Positions 1 to 11,804 of a DNA stretch of 32,000 nucleotides are shown piece by piece. The notes below the pieces were generated by a model. The model was not told the DNA's origin. It ran no database searches and saw nothing but the letters and a program-made list of their open reading frames with translations. Numbering within the stretch: the stretch's first letter is position 1; every line of letters begins with the position of its first letter. Made by a program: the position numbers and the translations under genes. The stretch spans positions 990,001 through 1,022,000 of the forward strand of contig OY970322.1 of assembly GCA_963716945.1 (NCBI GenBank), given 5' to 3'. The stretch is from Candidatus Saccharimonadota bacterium (GTDB taxonomy: Bacteria > Patescibacteriota > Saccharimonadia > Saccharimonadales > UBA4665).

Positions 1-63
1 GAATGTAGTACACTTAACAACATGCAGGCTGTATCAGTTCAACGGGATAGGAGACACGTATCG

Positions 64-1770
64 ATGGCTCTGAGTACGCACGCTGACAATCCCGATGGAG
101 CTGCGGCCGTCATCTACCTGCGGGTATCGAGCAAGGAGCAAGCCGAAAAGGGCGGCGAAGCCGAGGGATTCTCGATCCCCGCGCAACGCGAGGGCTGCAA
201 GCGCAAGGCGCAGAGCCTAGACGCGGTAGTCATCGAGGAGTTCGTCGAGCGCGGCGAGTCGGCCAAGACGGCTGACCGACCCGAGTTGCAACGGCTACTT
301 GCCTACCTCGCCGAGCATCCTGTCAAGTACGTCATCGTCCACAAGGTTGACCGACTGGCGCGCAACAGGGCCGATGACGTAGCGATCAACATGGCGATTC
401 GGCAGGCCGGGGCCGAGCTGGTGTCCGTCTCCGAGAACATCGACCAAACGCCATCGGGTCTACTGCTGCACGGCATCATGGCCTCGATCAGCGAGTTCTA
501 CAGCCGCAACTTGGCGACGGAGGTCATCAAGGGCACCACGCAGAAGGCCAAGAACGGCGGCACGCCGGGTCGTGCGCCGATCGGCTATCTGAACGTGCGG
601 GGCATGATCGAGGGCCGCGAAGTCCGTACCGTCGAGGTCGATCCGGTGCGCGGGCCGCTGATGGCGTGGGCGTTCGAGGCGTATGCGACCGGCGAGTGGA
701 CAATCCGGCGTCTACTGGCTGAGCTGACCGCCCGAGGCTTGACGACGGCACCGGGCCGAAAGAATCCGGGCCGGCCAGTGGTCGTCTCGCACCTGCATAC
801 GCTACTGCGCAACCCGTACTACATGGGCATGGTGCGCTACCGGGGAGCGGTCTACGTAGGCAAGCACGAGCCGCTCGTCACGCCCGCCATTTGGCATGAA
901 GTCCAGAGCATCTTGAGCGCGAAGTACCTAACCGGGGAGAAGGATCGGGAGCACCCGCACTACTTGAAGGGCAGCATCTACTGCGGCCAGTGCGGCGCTC
1001 GCCTGATTGTCAATCGAGCCAAAGGCAACGGCGGCAGCTACATGTACTTCGTCTGTGGCGGACGACAGCGCGACCCGGCAAGCTGCCAGTTCCGGGCGGC
1101 ACGGATCGAGCAGGTCGAGGCTGCCGTCGTCGCCTGCTACGCGACTGTGCAGCTTCCCGAGGATGAGGTTGCACGACTGCGTACCTTCTTGGGTCAAGAG
1201 CTGGCGAAGCTTCGCAGCGACTCCGAGCGTGAACGGGACGAGCAGGAGCGCCGACTGCGAGGACTCCAGGGCGAACGCGAGAAGCTGCTCCAAGCCCACT
1301 ACGCCGATGCGATCCCGCTCGACCTTCTCAAGCGCGAGCAAGACCGCCTCACGACAGCTATAGCCAACGCCGAAGGTCGGCTGGCTGCCATCACCGCCGA
1401 CCTCAAGGCGGCCGATGCAAATATGCACAAGGCCCTGACCCGAGCCGGCGACTGCCAGACCGCTTACGACGAAGCCGCCGACCGGCTGCGCCGGCAATTC
1501 AATCTGACCTTCTTCAAGCGCCTCGTCGTCTACGACTCCAGCAACGTCTCCGCCGAGCTGGCCGAACCTTGGGACATCATCCTCGGAGAGGAGCTGCGAC
1601 GGGCAGTCGCCGCACAAGAGGCCGAAAGCCTCAAAGACGCCATTGAACACGCCAAGCGCGAGCACGCACGACGCCCACGCGGGCCAATCGCAGGCAAGAC
1701 GACAACCGCCGCCCCTGATTGGGGCGGCGGTTGGAGTCCGAACATGATGGTGCGGGTGAGGGGACTCTAA
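64..1770 (+). CDS. Large serine recombinase (resolvase catalytic domain + recombinase domain + zinc ribbon + coiled coil)
   Basis: The ORF is open from 22. The ATG at 64 is preferred because AGGAG lies about 10 nt upstream. Motifs: catalytic-Ser 'AVIYLRVSSKEQ', 'VHKVDRLARN', 'SISEFYSRNLATEVIKG', Cys-rich ribbon 'YCGQCG...YFVCGG...SCQF', and an Arg/Glu-rich coiled coil 'RSDSERERDEQERRLRGLQGEREKL'. Confidence 0.85.
   Translation: MALSTHADNPDGAAAVIYLRVSSKEQAEKGGEAEGFSIPAQREGCKRKAQSLDAVVIEEFVERGESAKTADRPELQRLLAYLAEHPVKYVIVHKVDRLARNRADDVAINMAIRQAGAELVSVSENIDQTPSGLLLHGIMASISEFYSRNLATEVIKGTTQKAKNGGTPGRAPIGYLNVRGMIEGREVRTVEVDPVRGPLMAWAFEAYATGEWTIRRLLAELTARGLTTAPGRKNPGRPVVVSHLHTLLRNPYYMGMVRYRGAVYVGKHEPLVTPAIWHEVQSILSAKYLTGEKDREHPHYLKGSIYCGQCGARLIVNRAKGNGGSYMYFVCGGRQRDPASCQFRAARIEQVEAAVVACYATVQLPEDEVARLRTFLGQELAKLRSDSERERDEQERRLRGLQGEREKLLQAHYADAIPLDLLKREQDRLTTAIANAEGRLAAITADLKAADANMHKALTRAGDCQTAYDEAADRLRRQFNLTFFKRLVVYDSSNVSAELAEPWDIILGEELRRAVAAQEAESLKDAIEHAKREHARRPRGPIAGKTTTAAPDWGGGWSPNMMVRVRGL
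1703..1733. other. Perfect 13-bp GC-rich stem-loop (possible tRNA-Gly terminator or recombinase-associated palindrome)
   Basis: CAACCGCCGCCCC (1703..1715), TGATT loop, GGGGCGGCGGTTG (1721..1733). It lies inside the last codons of the recombinase ORF, about 15 nt downstream (minus sense) of the tRNA-Gly CCA end. No clear U-tract follows on either strand. Confidence 0.5.
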
Positions 1771-1824
1771 CCCCTGGCCTCGTCCTTGGCAAGGACGCGC
1801 TCTAAACAACTGAGCTACACCCGC
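1748..1824 (-). tRNA. tRNA-Gly (anticodon GCC), CCA encoded
   Basis: Hand-folded cloverleaf. Acceptor GCGGGTG/CACCCGC, D arm GCTC-AGTTGTTTA-GAGC, anticodon arm CGTCC-TTGCCAA-GGACG, T arm AGGGG-TTAGAGT-CCCCT, discriminator A + CCA. Confidence 0.9.
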
Positions 1825-1871: not shown

Positions 1872-1947
1872 TGGTGGCGCCTCCCAGACTCGAACTGGGG
1901 ACACAAGGCTCTTCAGGCCTCTGCTCTACCAACTGAGCTAAAGCGCC
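1872..1947 (-). tRNA. tRNA-Phe (anticodon GAA), CCA encoded
   Basis: Cloverleaf: acceptor GGCGCTT/AGGCGCC, anticodon arm GAGGC-CTGAAGA-GCCTT, T arm CCCAG-TTCGAGT-CTGGG, A + CCA. 76 nt. Confidence 0.9.
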
Positions 1948-3697: not shown

Positions 3698-4951
3698 TTA
3701 GCTAACGCCGAGCCAGCCCAGGACGGTCTGGGTCAGGACGGTCAGTGACAGCACGCTGACCACGGCGATGCAGACCGTGGCGACAGCCCGGAAGATCGGG
3801 CCGTTGGCGGCGTCGCCGAGCAGCGAGCGCTTGTTGGCCAGAATCAGCAGGTAGACCAGCAGGATGGGCGTGATGATACCGTTCAGGACCTGGGCGTTAA
3901 TCAGGGTGTGGATCAGGTTGCCCGGTATCAGGGCGACCGAGGCGCCGATGATGATTTGGATGGTGAACAGGCCGAGGAAGACCGGCGCTTCGCGGAAGCG
4001 CTTGCCGACGCTGCGTTCCGAGCCGACGGCTTCGCTGACGGCATAAGACGACGATAGCGGCACGATAACCGCGGCCAGGGCGCTGGCCCCCAGCAGGCCG
4101 ATGCCGAACAGCTGGGTCGCGAACGCGCCGGCCACCGGTTTCAGCGCCCGCGCCGCTTCGGTGGCACTGTCCAGCGGCGCCCGGGTCCGGATGGCGGCCG
4201 CCGTGGCGATGATAATGAAAATGCTGATAATATCGGCAAACAGCGCCCCGGCGATAGCGCTTACCCGTTCGCGGTTATAATCATCAGGCCCGACGCCTTT
4301 GTCGGCGATGGCCGCCGCCAGATAAAACTGCATGTACGGCGTAATGGTCGTTCCGATTAGGGCAACGCCCAGGAACAGGAAACTTTTACTAAGTATGAAG
4401 TGCGGCCAGACCAGCTGGCTGGCGGCCTGGCTGACATGCGGATGCGACAGGAAAGCGGCCACCGGATAGGTCAAAAAGGCCAGCGACAGGACCAGGAAGA
4501 TGCGCTCCACCCGTCGGTAGCTGCCGAACATCACCAGTGACCAGACCAGCACGGCGGCAATCGGCACCGATGTATAGCGGCTGACGTTGAACAGCTGGAA
4601 AGCGGCCGCGATACCGGCGAATTCGCTGACCACCAGGCCGATGTTGGCAACTACGAACAGCCCCAGCGCCAATGTCGTCATCCTAATCGAAAACTGTTCG
4701 CGAATCAGCGAACCGAGGCCCTCGCCGGTGTAAGCACCGAGCCGGGCGCACATTTCCTGGACGACGACCAGCGCCACCGTAACCAAAACCATAAAAAAAA
4801 GCGTCCGGTAGCCGAATTGGGCGCCCGCCGAAGCATAGGTCGCGATACCGCCGGCGTCGTTGCCGGCGTTAGCGGCAATCAGACCGGGGCCGGCGATGGC
4901 CAGAATTGCTATCAGCAGCCGTTTGGAAGTTAAGTGCTTGAGTCTCATCAT
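3698..4951 (-). CDS. Nramp-family transporter with a non-canonical metal site (NRMT-like, candidate Mg2+ transporter)
   Basis: 417 aa, polytopic. The TM1 segment 'IAGPGLIAANAGNDAGGIATYASAGAQFGY' aligns with the Nramp 'GPG...DPGN..T....GA' signature, but DPGN is DAGG (nt 4847..4858). The TM6 segment 'IGTTITPYMQFYL' replaces 'G..VMPHN.YLHS', so MPH becomes TPY (nt 4334..4342). Its start overlaps the upstream stop (ATGATGA). Confidence 0.8.
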   Translation of the reverse strand: MMRLKHLTSKRLLIAILAIAGPGLIAANAGNDAGGIATYASAGAQFGYRTLFFMVLVTVALVVVQEMCARLGAYTGEGLGSLIREQFSIRMTTLALGLFVVANIGLVVSEFAGIAAAFQLFNVSRYTSVPIAAVLVWSLVMFGSYRRVERIFLVLSLAFLTYPVAAFLSHPHVSQAASQLVWPHFILSKSFLFLGVALIGTTITPYMQFYLAAAIADKGVGPDDYNRERVSAIAGALFADIISIFIIIATAAAIRTRAPLDSATEAARALKPVAGAFATQLFGIGLLGASALAAVIVPLSSSYAVSEAVGSERSVGKRFREAPVFLGLFTIQIIIGASVALIPGNLIHTLINAQVLNGIITPILLVYLLILANKRSLLGDAANGPIFRAVATVCIAVVSVLSLTVLTQTVLGWLGVS

Positions 4952-6264
4952 GACAGTATCCTCGGGAAGTGGAAACGGTTGCCGTCGGGAACCAGGACGT
5001 CAATAATGTCGTCGGCCAGGATCCGGCCCAGCGGCCGGCCGGCGTCGTCGACGACCAGGACCGACGACCGCCGGTTGTTGATCAGCAGGTCGGAGACATC
5101 CTTGATGGAAGCGCCGGGGGGTACGGTGACCGGCGAAGGCCCGGTGATAGTGTCCTTGAGTTTTTTGGCCGGGTCGGCCAGGAAGAGCTCGGCCATGGTC
5201 GCATCATGGACGAATTTGCCGGCCTCATCGACCAGAACGACGGCTTCGAGTTCGGCAACCGGGCGTTTGGCGTCGGTTAGCCGTTTGCGCAAGTCACGCA
5301 CTGTTTCCGATATCGGGGCCGTAGTTATGGCCGTGTTCATGAAACCGCCGGCCGTTTCTTCGTCATAAGACAGTACCCTGTTAACCTGTTCCGACGAGTC
5401 GTCGGGCATCAGTTCCAGCAGCTGCCGGCGCAAATCCTCGTCGATGTCGCGCAGGGCGTCGGCGGCTTCGTCCGGCTCCATGCTGGTCAGGTACTGGGCG
5501 GCTTCTTCGGGGCTGGCTTCGCGCAGCAGGACGCCCAATTCTTTGGCCTGCATTTCTTCCAGGGCGTCGGCCGCCTGGTCGCGGGTCAGCGAATCCAGCA
5601 GTTCGCGGCGTTCGGCCCGGCCCAAATCTTCCAGCAGGTCGGCCAGTTCGCCGGGGCGCAACTTGCGCAGTTCGTTGCGGCTGGAGGCCAGCTTGAGGCT
5701 CTGGCCGTTTTCGGACCGGCCAAAACTTTTGATAGACGACCAGTCGATAACGGCGCCCGGACTGGAGTGCTTGCGCCAGCGGGCCGGACCCAGCCGGCGC
5801 AGCAGTGCCCGGTAACTGACATCTACGGCTACTAACCGCAGGACTTTATTATTATTGGCGACGTACAGGTCGGCCGCCCGGACGACGCGGGCGCCGTCGA
5901 TATCGACCAGCTGGTGGTCGAGAATGTCCTGCAAGACCCTGACCTCGGCCGGCCGGGGCTTAAAGTCGCGCAAGTCGAGCTGTGCCGTGTTGAGGCGGAT
6001 ACTTTTGCGGGTGGCTTCTTCGACCTGGCTGGCGGCTATCCAGACTACCCGGCGGCCGACCTTGACCAGAATGCCCGACAGGGGCGGATAAGCCTCACTG
6101 GTGTCCCAGCGGAAGACCAGGTCCACCAGGGTGCCGACTTCTTGGCCGCCCTTGTGGACGACCGTGCAGCCCGCCAAACCGGCAGCCGAAATCAGCGACT
6201 TGCTGAGATGCGAAGGCGCCTTTCGGGGTATACGTAATGCCGGTGGGTGAATTCTCTTTGACAT
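4948..6264 (-). CDS. Soluble MgtE-like cytoplasmic module: PRC-barrel-like repeats + MgtE_N domain + CBS pair, no transmembrane pore
   Basis: 438 aa. MgtE_N-type helical repeats: 'ELADLLEDLGRAERRELLDSL', 'AADALEEM', 'MEPDEAADALRDI'. Also the connector 'LSYDEETAGGFMNT' and two CBS-like units ending 'GRILADDIIDVLVP'. There is no hydrophobic span. The ORF ends where MgtE proper continues into its TM domain. Confidence 0.75.
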   Translation of the reverse strand: MSKRIHPPALRIPRKAPSHLSKSLISAAGLAGCTVVHKGGQEVGTLVDLVFRWDTSEAYPPLSGILVKVGRRVVWIAASQVEEATRKSIRLNTAQLDLRDFKPRPAEVRVLQDILDHQLVDIDGARVVRAADLYVANNNKVLRLVAVDVSYRALLRRLGPARWRKHSSPGAVIDWSSIKSFGRSENGQSLKLASSRNELRKLRPGELADLLEDLGRAERRELLDSLTRDQAADALEEMQAKELGVLLREASPEEAAQYLTSMEPDEAADALRDIDEDLRRQLLELMPDDSSEQVNRVLSYDEETAGGFMNTAITTAPISETVRDLRKRLTDAKRPVAELEAVVLVDEAGKFVHDATMAELFLADPAKKLKDTITGPSPVTVPPGASIKDVSDLLINNRRSSVLVVDDAGRPLGRILADDIIDVLVPDGNRFHFPRILS

Positions 6265-6273
6265 TTGGTATAT

Positions 6274-6282
6274 ATTATATCA
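6274..6282 (-). promoter_or_regulatory. Extended -10 promoter (TGaTATAAT) for the MgtE_N/CBS + Nramp operon; near-leaderless geometry
   Basis: Minus strand reads TGATATAAT (6282..6274). Only 9 nt separate the -10 box from the ATG at 6264, and there is no SD. Confidence 0.5.
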
Positions 6283-6356
6283 TAAAATCTACTAATCCGT
6301 GCCGGTCCGGCCAGCCCTGACCGGCCGGATACCTGATTTTGCGGCTTTATACGCTG

Positions 6357-6381
6357 GAGCCAAGCTTTTTGGGCTTGGCTC
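6357..6381. other. 9-bp perfect hairpin (possible U-tract-less terminator of the 6504..7247 gene)
   Basis: GAGCCAAGC (6357..6365), 7-nt loop, GCTTGGCTC (6373..6381). No convincing U-run follows on the minus strand. Confidence 0.4.
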
Positions 6382-6503
6382 TCAGTCGTGTTTTCTCGTG
6401 CGCGCCCACCCGGCGACGGGCAAGGTGTAGATATTTTTGTTTTTATCTGTTTGTTTGACGCGCCGCCCGCTAGCGCACGATCTATGTCTAAGCATAATTA
6501 AAT

Positions 6504-7247
6504 TCAGGCTTTTGTCAAGCTTGAAGGGCGTTTCAGCTCGCCCGCCCGCGGCAAGATGTACAGGGACAGAATCAGAGCGAACAGGACCGCAAAACCGCAC
6601 ATCACGCTCGGTATCGCCCGTTGGGTGGCCGGCCTGAGCTCGCCGACCAGGATGGTCGGCACGATGAAGACCAGCCAGCCGATCATCAGCGCCCGGACGG
6701 TCTGCAGCTGCCGGTAGGCTTTTTTGCCCCGGCTCATCAGTTCGTTGGCCCAGCGAATGCCCATCAGGAACGAGATGCCCAGCCAGCCGTAATAGTAGGC
6801 CGTGTACCAGCCGCCCCAGGTGTAGGCTATCTGGAAGATGACATAGTTACCGGTACATTTGTAGCCGAAGAATGCATTGTCGCCGACCAGGAAGAAGGTC
6901 ACGAAGACCAGCATCGTGGCGTAAGCCGTCCAGACCAGCCACCGGTTCTTCTTGCCGGTCAGGACATGAAGTATATGAATGCCGAGCGGCGGCAGCACGC
7001 TGATAGCCGCGAAGCCCAGGCGCGACCAGGTAGGCGTGTTGCCCAGCCAGCTGGTACAAACGAAATACTCGCAGACCTGAAAAGTAGCCAGCATAACCAA
7101 GGTGATAATCACCAGCCGGCTCAACTCGGTCATCTTGTAACGGGCAAACGTGTAGATAGCCAGCCCCAGCTCGATAACTACCGTGGCCACCATCACCGGC
7201 GGCGAAAAACAGTTGAATTGTGTGCCGTGGCGCTGCCGCATAAGCAT
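6504..7247 (-). CDS. Hypothetical polytopic membrane protein
   Basis: 247 aa, Trp/Tyr-rich, with about 7 hydrophobic spans. No family recognised confidently. Confidence 0.5.
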   Translation of the reverse strand: MLMRQRHGTQFNCFSPPVMVATVVIELGLAIYTFARYKMTELSRLVIITLVMLATFQVCEYFVCTSWLGNTPTWSRLGFAAISVLPPLGIHILHVLTGKKNRWLVWTAYATMLVFVTFFLVGDNAFFGYKCTGNYVIFQIAYTWGGWYTAYYYGWLGISFLMGIRWANELMSRGKKAYRQLQTVRALMIGWLVFIVPTILVGELRPATQRAIPSVMCGFAVLFALILSLYILPRAGELKRPSSLTKA

Positions 7248-10326: not shown

Positions 10327-11205
10327 CTAGGCGTGGGTGCCCATGCTGCGCAGGCGGGCGATGCGGTCGTCAATCGGCGGGTGGGTGCTGAACAGGCCGG
10401 CCAGGCTGTGGGCCTTGAGCGGGTTGACGAAGAAGAGGTGGGCGGTGGCCGTGTTCTGGTGGCGGGCGACGCTGCCGGTCTGCTTGATCTTCTCCAGGGC
10501 ACTGGCCAGGGCTTCAGGGTAGCGGGTAGTCAGGGCGCCGCTGGCGTCGGCCAGGTATTCCCGCTGGCGCGAGACGGCCAGCTGAATCAAAGTGGCCACG
10601 ATCGGCGCCAGGATAGCCGCTATGATACCCAGTACTATGAAGACTTGGTTGTTTTCGTCCCGGTCGCCGCCGCCGAACCACGCTAGGCGGATCATGATGT
10701 CAGCTACCAGCGAGATAACCGCCGTCAGGGCGAAAGCGATCATGCTGACGCGGATGTCATAGTTCTTGATATGGCTCATTTCGTGGGCCAGGACGCCTTG
10801 CAATTCGTCATCGTTCATCATGTCGAGAATACCGCTGGTAGCGCAGACGGCGGCGTGCTTGGGGTCGCGGCCGGTCGCGAAAGCGTTGGGCGCCGGGTCG
10901 TTCATGATATAAACCCGCGGCATCGGCAGTCCGTCGGTGATGGACAGGTTCTCGACGATACGCCACAGCCGGGGGTTGTCGCGCTTCTGAATCTCCTGGG
11001 CCTGGTTAACGGCCAAAGCCATTCTGGAGCCGGCATAATAGGTAACGATAGCATAGACGCAAGCGCCGATGAGGCCGCCGTAGAACACGCCGGTGCCGCC
11101 GCCGAGATACTTATCAAAAATCCAGATGATCAGCGTCACGAAGGCTAGGAAAACCAGCATTATAAAAACGGTTTTTCGTTTGTTGGCGGCAATATCAGAG
11201 TACAT
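10327..11205 (-). CDS. htpX: Zinc metalloprotease HtpX (M48 family)
   Basis: 'HEMSHIKNYD' (HExxH), four TM segments, 'REYLADASGA' and 'STHPPIDDRIARL' at the C-terminus. Confidence 0.9.
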   Translation of the reverse strand: MYSDIAANKRKTVFIMLVFLAFVTLIIWIFDKYLGGGTGVFYGGLIGACVYAIVTYYAGSRMALAVNQAQEIQKRDNPRLWRIVENLSITDGLPMPRVYIMNDPAPNAFATGRDPKHAAVCATSGILDMMNDDELQGVLAHEMSHIKNYDIRVSMIAFALTAVISLVADIMIRLAWFGGGDRDENNQVFIVLGIIAAILAPIVATLIQLAVSRQREYLADASGALTTRYPEALASALEKIKQTGSVARHQNTATAHLFFVNPLKAHSLAGLFSTHPPIDDRIARLRSMGTHA

Positions 11206-11237
11206 AGGCTTCTGGGACTATTGAACGGCTGCCTTAA

Positions 11238-11804
11238 TTAAAACTTAACGTCAACCGGTTGCTGGACAGCGGCAGCCTCGGCTTCATCGACTTCGAAGAA
11301 TTCCTTATCCTGCTTGAAGCCGAGCATGCCGGCGAAGATATTGGTCGGAAAAGTCTTGCGCTTGGTATTGAAATCGCGCACCACGCCGTTGTAGAAACGC
11401 CGCGAAGCCTGGATCTTGTCTTCGGTGTCCGTCAGTTCGCCCTGGAGTTCCTGGAAGTTCTGCGAAGCCTTCAGGTCGGGGTAAGCCTCGGCGACCGCGA
11501 ACAGGCTCTTCATGGTCTTCTGGAAGTCGCCTTCGGCCTTGCCGGCCTGTTCCGGCGTCTGGGCGCTCAGGGTATTGGCACGGGCTGCAGTGACGTCTTC
11601 AAAGACCGATTTTTCGTGCGAAGCGTAGCCCTTGACGGTATTAACCAGGTTCGGTATCAGGTCGGCCCGGCGTTTAAGCTGGACGGTTATGTCGCTCCAG
11701 GCTTCATTAGATTGCTGGTTCAGGCGCACCAGGCCGTTGTACATGGCGGCACCGATGGCTATCAGCAGTACGATAACGACGATAATCACGATAACGACAG
11801 TCAT
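11238..11804 (-). CDS. lemA: LemA family protein
   Basis: N-terminal TM segment, then 'YNGLV.L.....AWSDI.VQLKRRADLIPNLV..VKGYA.HE' and 'YPDLKA...F..LQ..L..TE..I...R..YN', which are typical of LemA. AAAGGAGA SD lies 6 nt upstream. It sits next to htpX, as is common. Confidence 0.85.
   Translation of the reverse strand: MTVVIVIIVVIVLLIAIGAAMYNGLVRLNQQSNEAWSDITVQLKRRADLIPNLVNTVKGYASHEKSVFEDVTAARANTLSAQTPEQAGKAEGDFQKTMKSLFAVAEAYPDLKASQNFQELQGELTDTEDKIQASRRFYNGVVRDFNTKRKTFPTNIFAGMLGFKQDKEFFEVDEAEAAAVQQPVDVKF

Follow-up and report, generated by a model that had tools for sequence, protein, structure and literature searches.

A Saccharimonadales operon that pairs an NRMT-type transporter with a soluble, MgtE-like candidate Mg2+ sensor

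The subject of this study is a pair of minus-strand genes in a 32,000-nucleotide stretch of DNA, called the window below, from a Candidatus Saccharimonadota bacterium (assembly GCA_963716945.1, contig OY970322.1, positions 990,001 to 1,022,000). The locus is a two-gene operon of the known NrmT/NRMT type, in which a gene for a 438-residue protein related to the cytosolic part of the Mg2+ channel MgtE (4948..6264) lies upstream of a gene for a 417-residue carrier related to the Nramp metal transporters (3698..4951). We propose, with about even confidence, that the upstream protein, here called the partner or sensor, is a Mg2+-sensing regulatory subunit that would hold the carrier inactive when Mg2+ is ample. 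It was reported earlier that most NrmT genes follow a gene for an MgtE cytoplasmic domain, and feedback regulation was proposed (Shin et al. 2014, PLoS Genet 10:e1004429, PMC4072509). Both the pairing and the regulatory hypothesis have thus been in print since 2014, and the arrangement described in an earlier note on this DNA is not new; to our knowledge, the locus lies in a phylum where it had not been pointed out before. New in this analysis are the constant tandem PRC-barrel module of the partner, its retained Mg2+-site carboxylates, its lost ATP ligands, and its C-terminus, which varies by clade.

The operon and its transporter

The two genes share the four nucleotides ATGA (4948..4951), in which the start codon of the carrier gene (ATG, 4951..4949) overlaps the stop codon of the partner gene (TGA, 4950..4948). 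The junction reads ...CTG TCA TGA / ATG ATG AGA..., with 'ATGATGA' at 4951..4945, and lies where the earlier note had placed it. From this overlap, translational coupling of the two genes is probable. Chance is no concern for either open reading frame (ORF), since both are long and have strong profile matches. In comparison with the operons of Shin et al. (2014), among them CA_C0685 of Clostridium acetobutylicum and ACP2976/ACP2977 of Acidobacterium capsulatum, the order is the same, with the MgtE-cytoplasmic homologue immediately upstream and co-oriented. Saccharimonadales, however, were not sampled in that paper; the partner is here a single 438-residue protein and not a 'small' one, and it carries a tandem PRC half, while the term 'PRC-barrel' does not occur in the 2014 text (term search). 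The features of the operon are as follows.

4948..6264, minus strand: gene for the soluble accessory ('sensor') protein, 438 residues, with tandem PRC barrel, MgtE_N domain, CBS pair and basic tail
5692..6195, minus strand: tandem PRC-barrel module, residues ~24-191, predicted (AlphaFold2 (AF2) model, Foldseek)
5356..5661, minus strand: MgtE_N helical domain, residues 202-303, with D233, D265/E266 and D269 (Pfam, residue mapping)
4993..5355, minus strand: connector YDEETAGGFMNT and CBS pair, residues 304-424, with D419 and D422 (Pfam CBS, alignment with 2yvy/2yvx, Foldseek)
4951..4992, minus strand: C-terminal tail VPDGNRFHFPRILS, residues 425-438, a conserved basic/aromatic motif where MgtE has its plug helix
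4948..4951, minus strand: ATGA start/stop overlap of the sensor and carrier genes (sequence)
3698..4951, minus strand: gene for the NRMT-type SLC11/Nramp-related transporter, 417 residues (Pfam Nramp, E=4e-80; EleNRMT 7QIA, E=3.4e-100)
4847..4858, minus strand: metal-site motif D32-A-G-G35 of transmembrane helix 1 (TM1), canonically DPGN and D55...G58 in EleNRMT (alignments)
4334..4351, minus strand: metal-site motif T201-T-I-T204-P-Y206 of TM6 (alignments)
3890..3892, minus strand: Q354 of helix 10, equivalent to EleNRMT Q379 (invariant alignment column)
6265..6518, minus strand: non-coding region 5' of the operon with one promoter-like site, TTGACA-16-TATGCT at 6518..6491 (consensus scan only, which is weak evidence)

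The carrier covers positions 1-356 of the 357 in the Pfam Nramp profile PF01566, which gives it the SLC11/Nramp LeuT-type fold over its full length. EleNRMT, the Nramp-related Mg2+ transporter of Eggerthella lenta, is by far its best match among all PDB sequences (339 bits, residues 14-412), against 60 bits (~1e-15) for the best MntH/DMT sequence in the PDB and 36 bits (5e-8) for the plant Al3+ transporter NRAT. The carrier does not reach the cut-off of either the MntH or the Nramp model of NCBIfam. It is 44% identical to EleNRMT over its whole length and 72-78% identical to actinobacterial homologues. Recent horizontal transfer from Actinobacteria, considered in view of the latter figure, was rejected; the guanine-plus-cytosine (GC) content of the operon, 0.61-0.63, is the same as in its flanks, so that composition lends no support to a transfer. 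The operon sits in chromosomal DNA of a Saccharimonadales bacterium, and the nearest named relatives of the sensor are labelled Candidatus Saccharimonadales.

The metal site tells the same story. N31-D32-A33-G34-G35 of TM1 aligns with NDAGG of EleNRMT, and in TM6 the stretch G200-T201-T202-I203-T204-P205-Y206 aligns with G-T224-T-I-A227-P-W. The residue pairs from EleNRMT to the window are accordingly D55 with D32, G58 with G35, T224 with T201 and Q379 with Q354. The four metal-site residues D, G, T and Q are thus the same in the two proteins, and both have lost the TM6 His; they differ in Thr204 and Tyr206 of the window, which are Ala227 and Trp in EleNRMT. Thr204, the first residue of the TPY triplet (residues 204-206, 4334..4342), sits at the canonical Met position, and Tyr206 stands where proton-coupled Nramps have His. 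The assignment of DAGG and TPY to the Nramp metal site, made in the earlier note from the sequence alone, is borne out by these alignments. By mutagenesis of EleNRMT, D55 is a metal ligand, G58 replaces the Asn of DPGN, T224 is needed for Mg2+, and Q379 is needed for transport, as seen from the effect of Q379A; the protein transports Mg2+ without proton coupling, and also Mn2+ (Ramanadane et al. 2022, eLife 11:e74589, PMC8806188). Mg2+ transport is known for C. acetobutylicum NrmT as well (PMC4072509).

The form 'GNDAGGI / IGTTITPYM' is the commonest metal site among 80 relatives from species genomes, and in these loci the canonical Met position, too, is most often filled by Thr and not by Ala; the window carrier is therefore a typical NRMT and no oddity. 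By every sequence feature that marks the NRMT branch, it belongs to that clade and not to MntH, as the earlier note had expected. The alignments describe a metal site that is widened (Asn to Gly, Ala to Thr, Met to Thr) and that has lost the His of proton coupling. Since sites of such a widened type take largely hydrated Mg2+ as well as Mn2+, the carrier is probably a Mg2+ importer, and by analogy with EleNRMT it probably works without proton coupling.

Architecture of the partner protein

More than 100 full-length homologues of the sensor were found by homologue search. Its C-terminal half matches the full Pfam MgtE_N profile (PF03448, positions 1-102) at residues 202-303 (E=1.8e-20) and the Pfam CBS profile at residues 376-424 (E=3e-12), its connector YDEETAGGFMNT aligns with YEEDEAGGLMTP of Thermus thermophilus MgtE, and residues 194-427 as a whole align to the cytosolic domain of that protein (2YVY, E=2e-15). 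The match to TIGR00400 (mgtE) covers profile positions 20-252 of 450 only, at 81.8 bits against a cut-off of 232.75, from which it follows that the membrane half of MgtE is missing. Pfam gives no match to the MgtE pore domain PF01769 in the protein. The chain ends ~11 residues past the position of Tt E255, where the plug helix starts, and holds no membrane span (highest 19-residue Kyte-Doolittle mean 1.07, against 2.46 in the carrier). Because the PF01769 match is lacking, the TIGR00400 match is partial and there is no hydrophobic span, the upstream protein is a homologue of the MgtE cytosolic domain and no MgtE transporter. The earlier note had described this domain order and this early end from the letters alone, and on both points it was right.

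An AF2 model of the full sensor, built on 78 homologues, has a mean predicted local distance difference test score (pLDDT) of 78. It superimposes in Foldseek on five structures of the MgtE cytosolic domain with TM-scores of 0.8-0.88 relative to the target and a root-mean-square deviation of 2.2-2.5 A over ~230 residues. Compared with T. thermophilus MgtE (2YVY/2ZY9), the N domain and CBS fold are the same; the sensor lacks the plug helix past its first turn, the five-helix pore and the ATP-site residues, has an extra N-terminal tandem PRC barrel, and is encoded by a gene separate from that of its presumed membrane target. Neither a PDB sequence search nor a fold search (PDB copy to April 2026) found a solved structure of the partner or of the complex.

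In the N-terminal half, the PRC-barrel-like segments of the earlier note match Pfam PRC (PF05239) below the cut-off (E=0.031; 14.7 bits against 21.2) in the window sensor, and a PF05239 match is on record for several of its homologues. In the AF2 model of residues 1-195 (pLDDT 79, predicted TM-score 0.77) they are predicted as two consecutive small beta-barrels, barrel 1 at ~34-91 and barrel 2 at ~107-148, followed by a short helix/strand extension. The best PDB fold match of this model is to the tandem-PRC cell-division proteins CdpB1/CdpB2 of Archaeoglobus fulgidus (8QZO; E=1.8e-4, ~140 columns across both barrels). Further Foldseek matches include reaction-centre H subunits (RC-H), RimM, CdvA and MTH1859. 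A PRC-barrel fold is supported for the N-terminal half of the sensor, at the level of the predicted fold, because the top 50 PDB matches of the model are almost all PRC-barrel proteins. Residues ~24-150 are predicted to fold as two consecutive PRC barrels. In CdpB1/CdpB2, RC-H, RimM and CdvA, the PRC barrels are protein-protein interaction modules; the likeness to CdpB1/CdpB2 and other PRC adaptors is otherwise distant (15-17% identity, TM-scores 0.42-0.58), and those proteins serve an unrelated process and have no MgtE_N/CBS fusion.

The module is found in the sensors of every phylum and clade sampled. Three partner genes directly upstream of NRMT genes, L007 (4670-5929), L010 (5030-5953, Mycobacterium sp. 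OTB74) and L016 (4925-5926), keep the tandem PRC barrel and the first ~60-70 residues of MgtE_N and have no CBS pair; by sequence they look like real CBS-less variants. Since they retain the PRC barrels, they suggest that the module is the indispensable part of the partner. The tandem PRC barrel is the most constant part of the partner, which is no bare MgtE cytosolic domain. Its family comprises 353 representative clusters at E<=1e-10, and many of the best 150 representatives match the N-terminal module alone. An independent family of 'short' tandem-PRC proteins was nevertheless not counted, as the examples inspected proved to be gene calls with frameshifts or truncations. Direct interaction would be strongly supported by a true fusion of PRC barrels to an NRMT. 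Two metagenomic gene calls, P0381 (288 residues) and P0319 (244 residues), do join PRC sequence in frame to the start of an NRMT, but they turn frameshift-like or skip TM1, are probably deletion or frameshift artefacts, and were not used.

The regulatory Mg2+ sites of MgtE can be followed into the sensor residue by residue. Conservation was counted over 105 distinct sensors, and the residue mapping, in which D265/E266 correspond to D91/D92 of T. thermophilus MgtE (TtMgtE), was checked against isoleucine numbering.

TtMgtE E59, site Mg7: D233 in the window, acidic in 104/105 sensors
TtMgtE D91, site Mg4: D265 in the window, in 102/105 sensors
TtMgtE D95, site Mg6: D269 in the window, acidic in 105/105 sensors
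TtMgtE D247, site Mg4: D419 in the window, in 104/105 sensors
TtMgtE D250, site Mg5: D422 in the window, acidic in 98/105 sensors
TtMgtE D226, site Mg5: R398 in the window, Arg/Asn in the window's clade and acidic in the Eggerthellaceae clade

Five of the six regulatory carboxylates (E59, D91, D95, D226, D247, D250) are thus acidic in the window sensor, each of the five positions being acidic in 98 to 105 of the 105 sensors. As far as alignment can tell, the acidic residues of Mg4, Mg6, Mg7 and half of Mg5 are conserved. In MgtE, Mg2+-dependent closure requires Mg4, Mg5 and Mg7, and it is these sites that are conserved from one MgtE structure to another.

The ATP site has fared differently. 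MgtE binds ATP through its CBS domain, ATP tunes the gating by Mg2+, and F227A alone abolishes ATP binding. In the sensor the aligned ligands are lost (Y170 to A341, R187 to A358, N203 to T374, F227 to R399), and ATP sensing of the MgtE kind was rejected on this ground. A wider version, in which the partner would respond to an adenine nucleotide or another small CBS ligand and not to Mg2+, draws on the facts that CBS pairs commonly bind adenosine nucleotides, that the CBS domain of MgtE itself does so, and that Foldseek yields many nucleotide-bound CBS pairs. The same four substitutions count against it, as do the Mg-site acidic residues, conserved by contrast, and the existence of CBS-less variants; we consider it very improbable.

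The C-terminus is where the sensor departs from MgtE, whose chain at the same position passes through the plug helix into the membrane. In the window it is short and basic, and the last 13 residues (...PDGNRFHFPRILS) are predicted to be disordered in the monomer model (pLDDT <50); P426, F433, P434 and R435 are nearly invariant among 78 homologues. Its form follows the clade:

Saccharimonadales and Actinomycetota: GR(F/L)HF(P/R)R(L/F)L
Chloroflexota: WRRRLPRLF
Nitrospirota: RKKRRKL
Eggerthellaceae-like: a hydrophobic helix, in 47/47 distinct sensors

The last form is seen in L082 (3446-4885), where the PRC-MgtE_N-CBS gene directly upstream of EleNRMT ends in an extra C-terminal hydrophobic helix (...KVLGGLVASILFLALYTLVLLQIIGYAGR), and likewise throughout L082-L161. 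On account of this helix the Eggerthellaceae-like partner is probably membrane-anchored. The EleNRMT partner thus ends in a transmembrane helix, and the tail of the window partner is short and basic; whatever form it takes in a given clade, the C-terminus always suits a membrane-proximal place, which points to action of the partner at the membrane.

Conservation of the pairing and the case for regulation

One genome per species (GTDB) was scanned with an NRMT alignment and the best 80 loci were kept; the partner was then sought in six-frame ORFs with hidden Markov models of its three parts, built from 114 homologues. It was found directly upstream of the NRMT gene in 59 of the 78 assessable loci, as follows.

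Directly upstream, same strand, full three-part form: 53 loci
Directly upstream, cut by the contig end: 3 loci
Directly upstream, PRC barrels and part of MgtE_N only (L007, L010, L016): 3 loci
Elsewhere within 6 kb: 5 loci
No partner in the flank: 14 loci
Not assessable: 2 loci

The 59 paired loci come from Saccharimonadales, Actinomycetota (Streptomyces, Kitasatospora, Mycobacterium, Acidimicrobiia), Chloroflexota, Nitrospirota, Dormibacterota, Melainabacteria and others, so that adjacency and gene order are kept over at least eight phyla. The 14 loci with no partner within 6 kb (L044, L046, L050, L052, L055, L056, L063, L064, L068, L069, L072, L073, L075, L079) are all from Acidobacteriota (Pyrinomonadaceae, Acidobacteriaceae) except L064, from a Thermogemmatispora metagenome-assembled genome (MAG). 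Several of them have a variant TM1, DASG or DPNG, the latter intermediate between DPGN and the DAGG of NRMTs. Beside the sensor-NRMT pair, L002 (2845-4221, minus strand) and L004 (1572-3548, minus strand) each carry a second, more distant Nramp paralogue on the opposite strand, one in a Saccharimonadales MAG and the other in a Streptosporangiaceae MAG.

A metagenome scan with EleNRMT gave 80 Eggerthellaceae-like contigs, with identities of 72-98%. Of the 76 that have upstream sequence, 75 show the same three-part partner gene ahead of the carrier gene, and the remaining one, L099, also carries the sensor gene; these gut metagenome contigs include paired loci 97% identical to the crystallised EleNRMT. 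The linkage holds from the sensor side as well: on long contigs an Nramp gene was next or next-but-one downstream in 4/4 look-ups, and no sensor-side look-up showed a sensor gene apart from an Nramp gene. The 4-nt (A/G)TGA overlap of the window recurs in 24 of 53 genome loci where the sensor is adjacent, and in most of the remainder the two genes lie within 50 nt of each other. The downstream start was taken as the candidate nearest the upstream stop, which biases spacings toward low values; chance would nonetheless not be expected to give a spike at exactly -4. The earlier note had asked whether the pairing is kept in relatives, and these counts answer that it is.

Starting from the two identities, the domain architecture, the conserved pairing with its overlap and the conserved Mg-site residues, we picture the system as follows. 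The carrier would import Mg2+ (and Mn2+) like EleNRMT, and the overlap of stop and start codons would see to it that the partner is synthesised along with it. The partner would lie on the carrier's cytoplasmic face, docked by its PRC barrels and by its tail or anchor, with the N domain and CBS pair sensing Mg2+ and the basic tail, at the plug-helix position, facing the membrane or the cytoplasmic face of the carrier. When cytoplasmic Mg2+ suffices, the subunit would be clamped into a compact state and the carrier kept inactive; as Mg2+ falls, the clamp would open, the N domain would be released, and import would resume. That the two proteins bind, that barrels and tail serve for docking, that Mg2+ is what the partner senses and that the carrier is inhibited as a result are inferred from these observations. 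The full picture, a stoichiometric complex held through the PRC barrels and the C-terminal tail or anchor, in which MgtE-type Mg2+ sites shut the carrier, is put forward tentatively, at somewhat less than even probability. The concept is that of the KtrA/TrkA RCK rings on KtrB/TrkH, where a ligand-sensing cytoplasmic protein encoded in the adjacent gene controls a membrane subunit in trans. Folds and ligands differ, and those complexes are experimentally established, whereas the window pair is known from sequence.

A number of observations weigh against regulation by Mg2+. On one hand, the transporters do well by themselves: EleNRMT is active alone in proteoliposomes (PMC8806188), the accessory gene is not needed for rescue by the C. 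acetobutylicum NrmT transporters, and co-expression of A. capsulatum ACP2976 and ACP2977 in Bacillus subtilis, the sole test of this kind, gave no further rescue (PMC4072509). The A. capsulatum carrier, moreover, behaved mainly as a Mn2+ importer, which rescued a Mn2+-uptake mutant fully and a Mg2+ mutant partly (PMC4072509). On the other hand, the sensor is not a complete copy of the MgtE one: D226 of site Mg5 is Arg (R398) in the window's clade, sites Mg2 and Mg3 are absent, along with the plug helix and the TM5 of the transmembrane domain that they need in MgtE, and the CBS-less variants and the 14 partner-less loci show carriers in company of a reduced partner or of none. Nor is there an M-box (RF00380) at the locus: nowhere in the window does an Rfam match to it reach the gathering score, and within 6150..6750 there is no match even at E<=1; by the same searches no riboswitch of any kind lies upstream of the operon. 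In this the window resembles A. capsulatum and differs from C. acetobutylicum, where an M-box is present; many NrmT operons carry one, though not all (PMC4072509).

The A. capsulatum result bears most on a reading in which carriers of this clade physiologically take up Mn2+, or else some other transition metal, and the partner senses the metal concerned, the two forming a regulated Mn2+ importer. That pair, also without an M-box, behaved in rescue as such an importer would; EleNRMT carries Mn2+ too; and carriers of the window's clade have Thr instead of Ala at the canonical Met position. The window carrier, by contrast, has T201 (equivalent to the T224 that EleNRMT requires for Mg2+), along with G35 and the signature of a wide site, lacks the Met that favours soft transition metals, and has a partner that keeps the carboxylates of the MgtE Mg2+ sites, which are hard-ligand sites. 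We regard a Mn2+ system as unlikely; it is compatible with gating and does not exclude it.

Shin et al. (2014) named 'metal chaperone activity' as an alternative role for the accessory protein (PMC4072509), and the partner could more generally be an assembly, stability or metal-handling factor and no gate, for example a cytoplasmic acceptor or chaperone to which the inner vestibule of the carrier hands over the ion. The transported ion could find ligands among the partner's many conserved acidic residues, PRC barrels serve in general to bind proteins (RimM, RC-H, CdvA, CdpB), and tightly coupled expression would suit any stoichiometric partner. NRMTs, however, fold and transport alone in heterologous hosts and liposomes, a Mg2+ chaperone has no obvious purpose because free Mg2+ is millimolar in cells, and conservation falls precisely on the residues that make up the regulatory sites of MgtE. 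This role appears improbable to us. It is decidedly improbable that the two proteins are merely co-expressed, the soluble one having another, membrane or ribosomal, target through its PRC barrels and making no contact with the carrier. The ineffective co-expression in B. subtilis (PMC4072509) and the use of PRC barrels in unrelated systems would fit such a case; opposed to it are adjacency and order over at least eight phyla with the frequent 4-nt overlap, a linkage that is reciprocal from the sensor side, a C-terminus that becomes a membrane anchor in one clade, and sensor genes never seen away from an Nramp gene in the look-ups.

We therefore return to the Mg2+-sensing subunit as the reading we favour. 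For a gating of the carrier by an MgtE-type sensor, as the earlier note had it, or a binding of the two proteins to each other, neither this analysis nor the literature searched gives evidence; the Mg2+-site carboxylates are retained, NRMTs work alone, and the co-expression was without effect. The note's idea that an MgtE pore was swapped for an Nramp protein is an evolutionary story and no result, and it leaves the tandem PRC module unexplained. Its remark that no such complex has been characterised still holds in the literature searched. No later publication on the accessory protein came up in full-text searches, and in the structural paper on EleNRMT (eLife 11:e74589) a term search found no operon, neighbouring or adjacent gene, and MgtE only as an unrelated transporter.

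Genomic surroundings and significance

In the window the operon has ordinary neighbours, among them genes for a serine recombinase, tRNAs, an SPFH protein, a 7TM protein, LigA, an M48 peptidase with LemA, and UvrC. The gene directly upstream of it, 6504-7247 (minus strand), encodes a 247-residue multi-pass membrane protein, a neighbour that is the same in L001; it resembles the 7TM N-terminal region of histidine kinases (HisKA_7TM, E=2.5e-6, just below the cut-off) and has no kinase domain. A large serine recombinase gene (22-1770, plus strand; Resolvase, Recombinase and Zn ribbon) ends in or beside a tRNA gene (1751-1824, minus strand), and a second tRNA gene follows at 1875-1947 (minus strand). 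An integrated element may have its edge here; the NRMT operon is 2-4 kb away, and the GC content of the operon is not unusual. Between 14000 and 19000 the GC content falls to 0.44-0.51, against 0.58-0.63 elsewhere. This part holds genes for a 991-residue protein with Ig-like/He_PIG repeats and a 577-residue PMT_2-type glycosyltransferase with TPR repeats, and may be a horizontally acquired surface-protein island. At 10327-11804 (minus strand), the LemA gene adjoins the M48 peptidase gene on the same strand.

NRMTs are the fourth class of bacterial Mg2+ importers. EleNRMT, their structural model, has so far been examined only by itself, although a conserved partner gene precedes its own and the part played by that partner has been a question since 2014. 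Saccharimonadales, with genomes of ~1 Mb, probably depend on the pair as one of their chief ways of obtaining Mg2+, a point on which a single window cannot decide by itself. The constant PRC barrels, the Mg4 and Mg7 carboxylates, the lost ATP site, and the tail or anchor offer new handles for testing what the partner does. If it is a trans-acting Mg2+ gate, the current transport data describe an unregulated half-system, and the pair would show a sensing module moved from a channel (MgtE) to a carrier. It would then be the first MgtE-type sensor to act in trans on a LeuT-fold carrier, and would give the PRC barrel its first function in the regulation of transport.

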